DNA of 38,987 nt from a virus (taxonomy: Duplodnaviria; Heunggongvirae; Uroviricota; Caudoviricetes), in IMG/VR virus record IMGVR_UViG_2879770953_000004; one strand, given 5' to 3'. Shown here piece by piece: positions 1-2,659 of the stretch. The stretch's first letter is position 1. Each line of letters begins with the position of its first letter. The position numbers were made by a program.

Positions 1-2659
1 ATGAGTGATGGGTGGTTAGATTCTACTATGCAAGCAATAAACGATAGGATTAAAAGCCCATTATGGGGATATATCATTCTTGCATGGGTATGGTTCAACT
101 GGCCTAACTTAGCAATGCTCTTTATGAGTGATGCGCCTGTTAAGTTTCGAATAGATTATATACTATCTCAGGAATATTTTTACGCTCATTATCTGCTTGC
201 TCCTGTCTTTTTTGGAGGTGTGCTAGCTGTTATTACTCCTTATGCTCAATGGTTACTTTCTCTTGCTCAAAAATGGGCTACAGATAAACACAATGAAAAT
301 GTTTATCTTACAAAGGAAAAAGAATACTTGGATTCAATCAGGTTAACGGGGTTAAAGGTTCGGGCTGCCAGAGAAGAAGAGAAAGAAAATGCTAAAATTG
401 ATGCTGATATTAAAGCGGAAGTAGAGCGTGGTAAGCGTGAAGAGCTGGTCACAGAAGAGCTACAGACAGAGAAGAAACTGATTCAGAAAGAAATTAATAA
501 TTTAAAGCAGTTAGTATCTAAAGAAAAACAAACCATTGAAAATATCGAGATAGAAAAAGAGAGACTACAGGATTTGATTGTTGCCTCACTTGAGGTAATG
601 GATGATTTCTTTAAAGTTGATAATAGCCGTTCATTACAGCAATTGAAGAGTAGGGTAGAAGAACTTTTAACAGTTTCTGATATTGAAGCTTCTACCATAC
701 GTAACGCGCTACGACAAAAGAAAGAGCTAACTTCATCACAGACAATGAAAATGTTCGATATGGTAGAGGCTAAAATTAAAAAGGAAAAAGAAAAAGGTAA
801 TGATATAGAGTCGGATGAATTAATTAACCAATAATGCTATGCCTGTAAATAACAGGACATAAACAGGTTAGTACCTATGCAATTTAACGGTATTTTTCCA
901 AGTATCTATGCAATCCTACACAGATTCTATACAGTATCGACATAGCCCCTTTTTATCATAACTTATTGAAATGTATAGAGAATCTGTAAATCCTCTTTTC
1001 AGGGTAAACTATATCGTGTTAGTCGTCCCTCTCCAGACACTACATATAGTGCTATATACAGGGCTATATAACGGTGTCTATGCAGTTGGTCACTATCAAT
1101 ATTCCCTCAAAGTGACTATCAACCTACTTAATAGTTACCTACGTGAAAGTTATGAAGTGATGGTTATAGTTCCTTCGTATCTCCTCTTAAAAAATCACTT
1201 AGAGACATCTTAATCTCTATACAGAATCTACGTAGGTGCTTATTAGTGCGCAAAACAGCTATTATGTTAAAAACATACTGTATACATATCAGTACTGATT
1301 TATAAGGGTTTTGTGTATTGGCTGATAAGAGGCTATACAGCACCTTGAGAGCATGTCTTATAAGTCATTGACACATAAGGTCACAGAAGTTTGTAGCTGT
1401 TACAGAGAAAACTGGATAGGACTTCACAGAACTACAAAATGTTACAGCTATTGATAGGTTAAATCTTCTTGATAGATGCTTTGAAGTGTGATGAAGGTTT
1501 CTTGAGGTGGGGCTAAACAGATATCATGAAGAAAGTCAATAGTTGGTTATAGATATTTTAACTGCTTTTGCAAAGGGAGTGCTATATCGTGAATCTGGGG
1601 TACTTAACAGCCATCAATTGAGTGTAGATATTTTTGAAGATTATCGGTGAAGGGGAATGTAGAGGGGTTACTACGATATTTATAAAAATTTTCAGACTCT
1701 GAAAAGTTACTGTACAGATTTTATACAAACAAAAAAGGACTCCGGTGAAGGAGCCCTCATCAGGTAGATTTTTAATGTGGCTACTACCATCCACCCATAC
1801 CGCACCAAACCTTACCCCACCGAACCGCACCCTACACGACCTTACCTCACCGGACACTGCCATAGAGAGTGTGCTTGGTTGCTTTGGAAGTAAACCTAGT
1901 ACAGTAAGCCATTATACATATCTAGATAGTAACGTCAAGAAACTTTTAACAGGAGGGGTTCCTATGGTCACATATTCCCTCTCTTCCCACTAAGTAAGCC
2001 TTAGCAGCACCTAAGCAACAATTGACTAACAGATTCGGTAGAGTCTATCTCATAGGTCAACTTCATAAACTCAGAGTTAAGTTACCTTGAAAGATTCTAC
2101 CAAGAACTACACAGGTGTTATTTAGTCTAACTGTGAAGGGATATTTAACGGGAGAAGAGATACGATATAACCCGAAGGGAGAGTATCATCTTAACAATTA
2201 TCTTAAGAATAAAAACTGAAAAACTCTTAACAGATAACTACCTAGAAAGAAGGGAACGATAAGACCAGAGGTAGTGACCTGTTAAACAGGCTGTTTCGAA
2301 GTCTCTTAAGAGTCTGTTAAGTAAGGTCATGTGAACAATCTTACCATTTTGTCAATGCCTTTGTCTTTGACCTAAATCAATAAAATGTATCGTTTGATAT
2401 GGTTTTAAGCAAAATAGCTAAAAAATCTTTTTAGAGGGGCGCTTCGCTTGTGTCACCAATATTATTCTTCCCTGTCTAAGGGGGAGGTTACAGAGGTCTT
2501 TCAAACCTCAATAGGCAAACCGAGGAACACGAAGGACGAGGGAAGAAAATCTATTGTGATTACCTTGAACAACGCCTGTAAAGACTGTCAAGAAGGTTGG
2601 TTAAGAATGGCTCTCCCTTTCTGGGGTTATCGCCTTGTATCTTAGTGATGAAGTGGTCA

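Follow-up and report, generated by a model that had tools for sequence, protein, structure and literature searches.

A gene-free block in the yecE island of Escherichia coli carries homologs of Felixounavirus genome-end sequences and of a phage repeat unit

The cos site of satellite P4 is identical to that of phage P2, and cos or pac sites are likewise carried by Staphylococcus aureus pathogenicity islands (SaPIs), phage-inducible chromosomal islands (PICIs), and capsid-forming PICIs. The PICI-like element (PLE) of Vibrio cholerae is an island with a large serine recombinase that parasitizes the virulent myovirus ICP1. Genome ends of the T7 type combine a short exact terminal repeat with short reiterated words and conserved unique flanks, and we know of no satellite that has been described for a helper using short exact direct terminal repeat (DTR) packaging. 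Mimicry of an RNA has a precedent in the RNA anti-CRISPRs, with which phages sequester Cas proteins by means of small RNAs that resemble CRISPR repeats. In this study, we examined a non-coding block in a viral record of 38,987 nucleotides (IMG/VR IMGVR_UViG_2879770953_000004; this whole stretch is called the window). The block amounts to about 2.4 kb (835-2648 plus 3898-4490, with an insertion sequence, IS, of the IS3 family between them) and belongs to an island of about 12 kb inserted in yecE, a DUF72 gene of E. coli. In the block, conserved cis elements alternate with variable slots for cargo genes, and the block does not look like the iteron origin or partition site that a first-pass annotation had suggested for its left part (835-2645). 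We think it somewhat probable, from sequence comparisons, that the block is the helper interface of a satellite-like island of Felix-O1-type phages (Felixounavirus), mimicking both the terminus signal and an RNA of the helper.

Felixounavirus genomes contain a 1.65-kb gene-free region between convergent genes (wV8 13885-15530, equal to 2886-4531 of locus L046 in our set). In most of the 257 records that share it, this region is unannotated or carries only doubtful tiny open reading frames (ORFs). It is dense in short words: 27 of the 126 genome-wide copies of YTGTTAR and 9 of the 18 copies of CTATAVAG lie within 2 kb. The physical ends of the phage are hidden because many records have been opened elsewhere. 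The record of phage vB_EcoM_E9 retains 580 bp that are identical at both ends (100%), that of MET-P1-301 retains 544 bp, and in both the terminal repeat maps to the core of the gene-free region. Published Felixounavirus DTRs measure 581 bp and 608 bp (PMC8303462, PMC4837284), and a PhageTerm result for phage E9 agrees with the DTR (PMC11737134). A DTR near gp055, as the start of the UAB_Phi87 record would have it, was ruled out by the records that carry both repeats.

With the small RNA (sRNA) unit described below set aside, the gap shares 8-, 9-, and 10-mers with this 1.65-kb region only, which is the sole outlier in the 89.6-kb phage genome (z = 5-6 for the gap, at most 2.7 for a coding control). 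Profile hidden Markov models (HMMs) were built from five phages and run on the window and 26 related loci, the right-boundary profile spanning -120 to +200 around the DTR boundary. They located two homologous pieces:

1535-1726, plus strand: homolog of the right boundary of the Felixounavirus DTR (E=2.1e-8, the sole match in 39 kb)
2236-2321, plus strand: homolog of the DTR interior (E=6.6e-5), within conserved module C (about 2135-2505)

The boundary homolog reaches about 90 bp into the repeat and about 125 bp beyond it, placing the equivalent of the boundary between 1604 and 1605, and conserved blocks flank the cut position on both sides. The same profile matched 25 of the 26 related loci, at up to E=2e-16; the best match is an island of Citrobacter, in which the cut context, GTACC before the cut and AAGCAGA after it, is kept. 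The interior profile matched 20 of the 26 loci, at up to E=1e-8. The interior homolog and the phage region have the 15-mer AAGGGAACGATAAGA in common, and module C around it is rich in CTGTTAAG/CTTAACAG words (counted as YTGTTAR). In the phage, the terminase makes the genome ends at the DTR of about 0.6 kb. The island pieces, as homologs of its boundary and interior, would allow the packaging or end-processing machinery of the helper to recognize island DNA. The recognizing machinery would most plausibly be the terminase, because the phage region, lying between convergent genes, has no obvious promoter role.

In this respect the locus recalls P4, the SaPIs, and the PICIs, in which a small integrative island without a full set of virion genes copies the DNA-end sequence of its helper. 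It differs from them in that the putative helper is a strictly lytic myovirus that packages with short exact DTRs, in that one repeat boundary and an interior piece are present in permuted order, and in that the island encodes tape-measure and Dit-like (distal tail) proteins and not capsid-size or terminase-small-subunit factors. Like the pacB/pacC junctions of T7 and T3, the phage region that the island copies is a word-rich short exact terminal repeat with conserved unique flanks; it has no sequence similarity to T7 or T3, and its ends are placed from deposited records. As a chromosomal island with a large serine recombinase and a putative virulent-myovirus helper, the element resembles PLE. 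The two differ in that PLE brings a replication initiator and an origin of its own as well as genes for capsid remodelling, and Pfam and PHROG scans of the island showed no similarity to PLE in sequence or gene content.

The second link to the phage is a predicted sRNA gene. The only BLAST-level phage match of 835-2645 is 1763-1864, with about 80% identity to 117 phage records, and a promoter and terminator scan together with the repeat array and the covarying hairpin delimits a unit around it on the minus strand:

1728-1938, minus strand: predicted sRNA gene of about 175 nt, transcript about 1904-1728
1938-1911, minus strand: promoter TTGACG-16-TATAAT, 11 of 12 consensus positions
near 1904, minus strand: start of the sRNA, with a CA-rich leader of about 43 nt
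1861-1792, minus strand: (GGUNN)x14 array of 14 consecutive pentamers
1788-1763, minus strand: hairpin
1758-1731, minus strand: intrinsic terminator

The predicted sRNA is 82% identical to phage XTG1. Across 25 arrays from phages and islands, of 10-15 units each, GGT is conserved, the two spacer positions are free to vary, and the arrays end in GGTAT-GGGT(G/A) or GGAAG. The hairpin that follows has a conserved loop of 12-16 nt and a stem in which substitutions are compensated (GGTAG/CTACC, GGCAG/CTGCC, GTCG/CGAC, AGTCTCA/TGAGACT, AATCG/CGATT). Six of its seven pairs change on both sides, giving a covariation score of 0.44 against 0.17 after shuffling, and none of 500 shuffles reached 0.44. Promoter, array, hairpin, and terminator are retained in three diverged versions of the island unit; in the two versions other than that of the window, the promoter is likewise of the sigma-70 type and sits at the equivalent position, and in one of these two the terminator stem has a compensating change. 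Felixounavirus genomes hold three to five such units in two intergenic regions that flank gp096-gp095, on the strand of these genes and within the replication-gene cluster, between DNA ligase and the DNA polymerase region. The island holds a single unit, as a stand-alone gene. No Rfam match at the gathering score was found in the gap, the phage units, or the Rhodococcus arrays described below, the gap giving one chance-level match at E<=5. Masking of the repeats by the CA-rich leader was considered and dropped, its minimum free energy (MFE) pairing being no better than that of shuffled leaders (0.10-0.97 of shuffles reach it).

When viral contigs were scanned for the pattern, arrays of the same kind turned up in unrelated phages (about 60-190 kb). 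In two of these, 23-25 nt separate the end of the array from an ORF with homology to gp096 (30% identity, E=1e-22). The gp096 family comprises more than 520 clusters and has no Pfam domain; Pfam and PHROG were uninformative for phage gp094-gp096. We examined three distant members with their flanks, from an environmental phage contig, a Xanthomonadaceae-associated contig, and a Rhodococcus genome, and in each a gp095-like gene (E=1e-13 to 2e-3) comes next and three to five GGYNN arrays lie in the flanks. The association of gene and array is thereby seen in six unrelated contexts, from which we infer that gp096 could bind the RNA, form a filament on it, and set the 5-nt register. The predicted structure of gp096 has the fold of a RAMP (repeat-associated mysterious protein) and a glycine-rich loop, and gp096 is accordingly predicted to be a Cas7/Csm3-like RAMP. 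Homologs of gp092-gp096 are absent from the window and the related islands. If expressed, the island sRNA would be bound by gp096 of the helper, either as a decoy that titrates the protein or as a means of co-opting it. Downstream of the gp096/gp095-like pair, the Rhodococcus globerulus contig (L085, 3137-3653) has five GGCNN arrays in tandem. After each of them comes a hairpin with the tRNA T-arm-like sequence CGGCGGTTCGATTCCGCCGCCG, and Rfam gave sub-threshold matches only in this stretch.

A triplet repeated 10-16 times with free 2-nt spacers is reminiscent of the trp leader bound by the trp RNA-binding attenuation protein (TRAP), which has 11 GAG/UAG triplets with 2-3-nt spacers, and by that analogy it is the signature of a multi-subunit protein that takes one triplet per subunit. 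Unlike in the TRAP system, the triplet is GGY and not (G/U)AG, there is no TRAP homolog, and the candidate binder has a RAMP fold and not a beta-sandwich ring. The CRISPR RNA (crRNA) filaments of Cas7, Csm3, and Cmr4 in type I, III, IV, and VII systems differ further. There is no repeat-spacer array here, and Cas10, Cas5, Cas6, and Cas11 were not recognized; the period is 5 nt and not 6; the genes are phage borne; and the island has the RNA without the protein. Nor is the locus a CRISPR array, as each island holds a single unit, the variable part is periodic at 5 nt, and the island has no RAMP homolog. The GGUNN RNA cannot be an ordinary guide, because only two of five positions vary. The RNA anti-CRISPRs are a parallel in concept only, in that the small RNA of a mobile element would imitate the RNA of another system and capture RAMP proteins; the imitated RNA would here be that of a phage and the imitator a satellite, and there is no similarity to a CRISPR repeat.

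The island itself has further ties to the same phages. Its features outside the block are as follows:

4491-10877, plus strand: island operon, encoding small unknown proteins, an HNH endonuclease, a tape-measure protein, and a Dit-like protein (Pfam, PHROG, tblastn)
7864-9930, plus strand: tape-measure protein of 688 aa, Felixounavirus-like
10104-10877, plus strand: Dit-like protein, Felixounavirus-like
10895-13751, minus strand: gene for a large serine recombinase, divided in two by an IS (aa 230-507 at 11728-10895, aa 1-234 at 13751-13050)
13848-14262: 5' fragment of yecE, right end of the island

The tape-measure and Dit-like genes have their closest relatives in Felixounavirus, where they occur in the same order. 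Identity to the phage is 67-73% for the Dit-like protein, which has homologs at 68-73% identity on phage contigs of 88-90 kb, and 30-50% for the tape-measure protein over two segments, residues 1-95 and about 205-688. The tape-measure protein is a variant and not a copy, because the segment between the two aligned parts differs. Other island proteins gave no match to a complete Felixounavirus genome in tblastn. Replication, capsid, portal, terminase, and polymerase domains were not found in the island by Pfam and PHROG. Three island proteins, p183, p92, and p234, gave nothing at E<=0.1 in a sequence search against solved structures, and Pfam and PHROG were uninformative for them. The island thus has a site-specific integrase and a defined insertion site (the large serine recombinase and yecE), no full set of virion genes of its own, and links to one helper group, as a satellite does, and may depend on infection by a Felixounavirus helper for its induction, replication, and packaging. 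Part of 835-2645 was found in 516 of 5,426 complete E. coli genomes, with 588 occurrences that are all chromosomal and mostly unannotated. A plasmid collection gave no match to the region. Intact islands are found, for example, in E. coli EC12 (NZ_CP070229) and SY3626 (NZ_CP059283), and E. albertii and Citrobacter have related islands.

The gene-free state of the region, which the first-pass annotation had asserted for 835-2645, was borne out: no ORF of at least 30 aa there stays intact in diverged relatives, and the longest, of 80-93 aa, are broken. The region had also been called AT rich, and it is (GC 0.33-0.41), although this does not set it apart, the rest of the island being likewise AT rich. 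It had been delimited at the IS; the block in fact continues to 4490 and is interrupted by that element. In relatives without the interruption, the corresponding stretch measures 2.5-3.3 kb, is mostly non-coding, and runs on across the insertion point. The left part is composed of modules:

835-2648: left part of the non-coding block, site of the earlier annotation, without a conserved ORF and with modular conservation in 26 related loci
839-1534: module A, an island-specific conserved block (alignment of 6 relatives, non-triplet indels)
1535-1728, 1755-1943, 1944-1999, and about 2135-2505 (module C): further conserved modules of the left part (comparison with 26 related loci)

Module A lies directly to the left of the DTR-boundary homolog and holds most copies of the motif discussed below (920-935, 972-987 inverted, and 1216-1231) along with CTATACAG/GCTATATA words; significant phage homology was not found in it. 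In the right part of the block, the unit of about 70 bp, the small ORF, and the divergent promoter region (4372-4438), all described below, complete the series of conserved modules. The modules occur independently of one another across relatives, with variable slots between them. Among full-length relatives, 1300-2430 is 94-100% identical, which exceeds the conservation of the island proteins, the first protein of the operon being about 60-90% identical. The stretch 1595-2430 is 97-100% conserved.

Several observations weigh against a helper interface as we describe it. On the DNA side, the left-boundary profile gave nothing at E<=0.01 in the 26 loci, and we discounted its marginal matches at 1097-1247 (E=0.04, not reciprocal) and 4394-4414 (E=0.8). 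The 14-mer GTTACGTAAATGCT at 4397-4410, in the island promoter region, equals the sequence abutting the left repeat boundary of the phage, but we rejected it as a trace of that boundary, as it occurs only in the window copy and is absent from all 26 relatives. Homology to the DNA-end region of the helper was found, then, and both repeat boundaries in phage order were not. The phage order is permuted in every island, to boundary, sRNA unit (where present), interior, which means that no simple copy of the concatemer junction is present. The DTR ends themselves were taken from the orientation that depositors gave to two records. On the RNA side, the sRNA unit occurs in 14 of 27 loci and in 153 of the 5,426 E. 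coli genomes (the region as a whole in 516), and is accessory for that reason. TM-scores for gp096 reach only 0.43-0.55, and Cas7 filaments bind RNA with a 6-nt period where that of GGUNN is 5 nt. The window copy of the island is disrupted by one IS in the gap and another in the recombinase gene. Finally, no account of Felixounavirus satellites or of the yecE island was found in the literature, of which our coverage was incomplete.

The recurrent words that had suggested an iteron-like array deserve a closer look, since a replication origin is one competing explanation. The motif ACAGATTCTNTATACA, with up to three mismatches allowed, has five matches in the 39-kb window, all at 920-1729, where 0.9 would be expected, and none of 100 shuffles reached five. 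Among the positions listed for it, 919, 972, 1213, 1709, and 2030 are real, and 1596 and 2092 are half-sites only. In 835-2645, 16 different 7-mers occur at least four times against 4.4 expected (P<0.002); the maximum 7-mer count (5) is ordinary, and 8-mers and 9-mers are not over-represented. The claimed enrichment over chance is therefore upheld by both the shuffle and the k-mer test, but for short degenerate 7-mer words only. These words, led by CTGTATA, CTGTTAA, AATCTGT, CAGATTC, and CTATACA, stand in both orientations at irregular distances and in no tandem order. Strictly speaking they do not qualify as iterons, and there are no regularly spaced direct repeats of 17-22 bp. An origin would nonetheless let the helper replisome copy the island, through the repeated words or through the G-rich transcript serving as a primer in an R-loop, as ColE1 RNA II does and as happens at T4 oriF/oriG. 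It remains a live rival because the island is without replication genes (Rep, primase, and helicase domains were not found in it), so that a cis site served by enzymes of the helper or host would be needed. The 7-mer excess fits such a site, as do the place of the phage units inside a replication-gene cluster and the G-rich non-template strand downstream of a strong promoter. We nevertheless consider an origin unlikely. Beyond the lack of regular repeats and of enriched 8- or 9-mers, there is no initiator or neighbouring rep gene and no plasmid relative, and the homologies are to a phage DTR region and a phage RNA element. An R-loop could do without a covarying hairpin and without a strict GGY period of 5 nt whose NN positions are free; about half of the islands have no sRNA unit, which would be odd for an origin; and the universally retained pieces are the DTR-derived ones. 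A partition site, the other function that had been proposed, is at odds with the lack of adjacent parA/parB-type genes in Pfam and PHROG scans and with the chromosomal location of 588 of 588 E. coli occurrences. What stands of the proposal for a plasmid, satellite, or phage site is its general part, a conserved block that looks cis-acting in a satellite-like, phage-related island, and not its specifics.

The modularity of the block, and the fact that relatives swap genes between the same modules, would also be explained if it were the scaffold of a cargo hotspot, its modules being promoters, terminators, and recombination anchors and its phage-like pieces functionless scars of recombination. 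To this we give slightly less credence than to an origin. The DTR-boundary homolog is kept in nearly every locus, that of Citrobacter included, and is conserved on both sides of the cut; 1595-2430 is almost invariant while the neighbouring proteins diverge to 60%; and promoter, array, hairpin, and terminator of the sRNA are all kept in three diverged versions, where scars should decay. It is very improbable that one large structured non-coding RNA, or a decayed coding sequence, fills the region, as its long conserved gene-free stretch might suggest. Rfam gives no match at the gathering threshold and only the chance-level one at E<=5, and MFE z-scores in sliding windows on both strands of 835-2645 are unremarkable, with a minimum of -2.5. 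In addition, no ORF is preserved, indels are not in triplets, and the pieces occur independently of one another.

A helper interface leads to a wider proposal, which we offer tentatively and regard as rather doubtful in its full form. A gp096-family RAMP, its gp095 partner, and arrays of 10-16 GGYNN pentamers with a hairpin may constitute an undescribed ribonucleoprotein module of many phages, Felixounavirus and prophages of Rhodococcus among them, in which the RAMP would polymerize with one subunit per 5 nt. At the same time, the yecE islands of E. coli and Shigella would be a new family of satellites of virulent phages with DTR packaging. They would exploit the helper twice, with a copy of its genome-end signal and with a constitutively expressed RNA that, as a decoy or for hijacking, captures the RAMP filament protein of the helper. 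We found no description of phage Cas7-like proteins with repeat RNAs in the literature, again with incomplete coverage. If the block is indeed a helper interface, a satellite of Felix-O1-type phages is present, unannotated, in about one in ten of the complete E. coli genomes. The islands could then affect phage yield, host range, and gene transfer, because these phages are widely used in typing, biocontrol, and therapy. It would also be the first satellite described, as far as we know, for a helper with short exact terminal repeats, and it would provide a handle on where the Felixounavirus terminase recognizes DNA. With a periodic GGYNN RNA beside a Cas7-like protein of a phage, there is a concrete lead, open to testing, to an RNA-protein system other than CRISPR-Cas, for which the orphan copy of the RNA in the island offers a natural experiment on the role of the RNA.

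The remaining features of the block are a small piece between the sRNA unit and module C, the IS, and the right part:

1944-1999, plus strand: small conserved piece with AGGAGG followed by a 9-codon mini-ORF at 1964-1993 (sequence; kept in loci L006, L009, L031, L034, and L036)
2649-3897, minus strand: IS3-family (IS911-like) insertion, with OrfA/OrfB-type ORFs, inverted repeats, and a target duplication
3898-4490: right part of the non-coding block, with a unit of about 70 bp, a 62-aa membrane ORF, and divergent promoters

The piece at 1944-1999 (about 55 bp) is retained even in islands that do not have the neighbouring sRNA unit. Its mini-ORF, MVTYSLSSH, stands behind a perfect AGGAGG and could encode a leader peptide or a micro-protein. 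The inverted repeats of the IS lie at 2648-2675 and 3871-3898, with a 3-bp target duplication, TGA, at 2646-2648 and 3898-3900. The whole gap contains 19 ORFs of at least 30 aa, of which the only conserved one is at 4100-4288 on the minus strand, outside 835-2645. The reading frame is unbroken in 13 of 15 relatives (72% amino acid identity), and its 62-aa product contains a hydrophobic segment and gave no match in Pfam and PHROG scans; it is annotated as hypothetical in one E. coli genome (L007). The unit of about 70 bp at 3907-3979 is single here, whereas most relatives have it twice in tandem. In front of the island operon stand divergent sigma-70-like promoters at 4401-4372 (minus strand) and 4410-4438 (plus strand), and a direct repeat, TGTTACG(A/T)AAAT, occurs twice at 4384-4407, overlapping their -35 regions; one of its copies extends into the 14-mer GTTACGTAAATGCT discussed above.

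In the relatives, the slots between modules contain a 277-aa coiled-coil/membrane protein, an AP2-domain protein, a Dam methylase, and a small serine recombinase, and such accessory-gene slots resemble the cargo hotspots of other satellites. Slot genes lie at 12947-13471 of L005, 13582-14244 of L006, 11168-11716 of L007, and 1-834 of the window.

Beyond the island, 14438-38987 is a decayed lambdoid prophage with lambda-type tail genes, several IS3-family copies, and an IS110-family transposase:

14438-15583: tyrosine integrase of the prophage
16999-17694: Q antiterminator of the prophage
17871-18180: four tRNA genes of the prophage
35391-37142: IpaH-like effector with a NEL E3 ligase, in the decayed prophage

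This pattern suggests a chromosome of Shigella or enteroinvasive E. coli.

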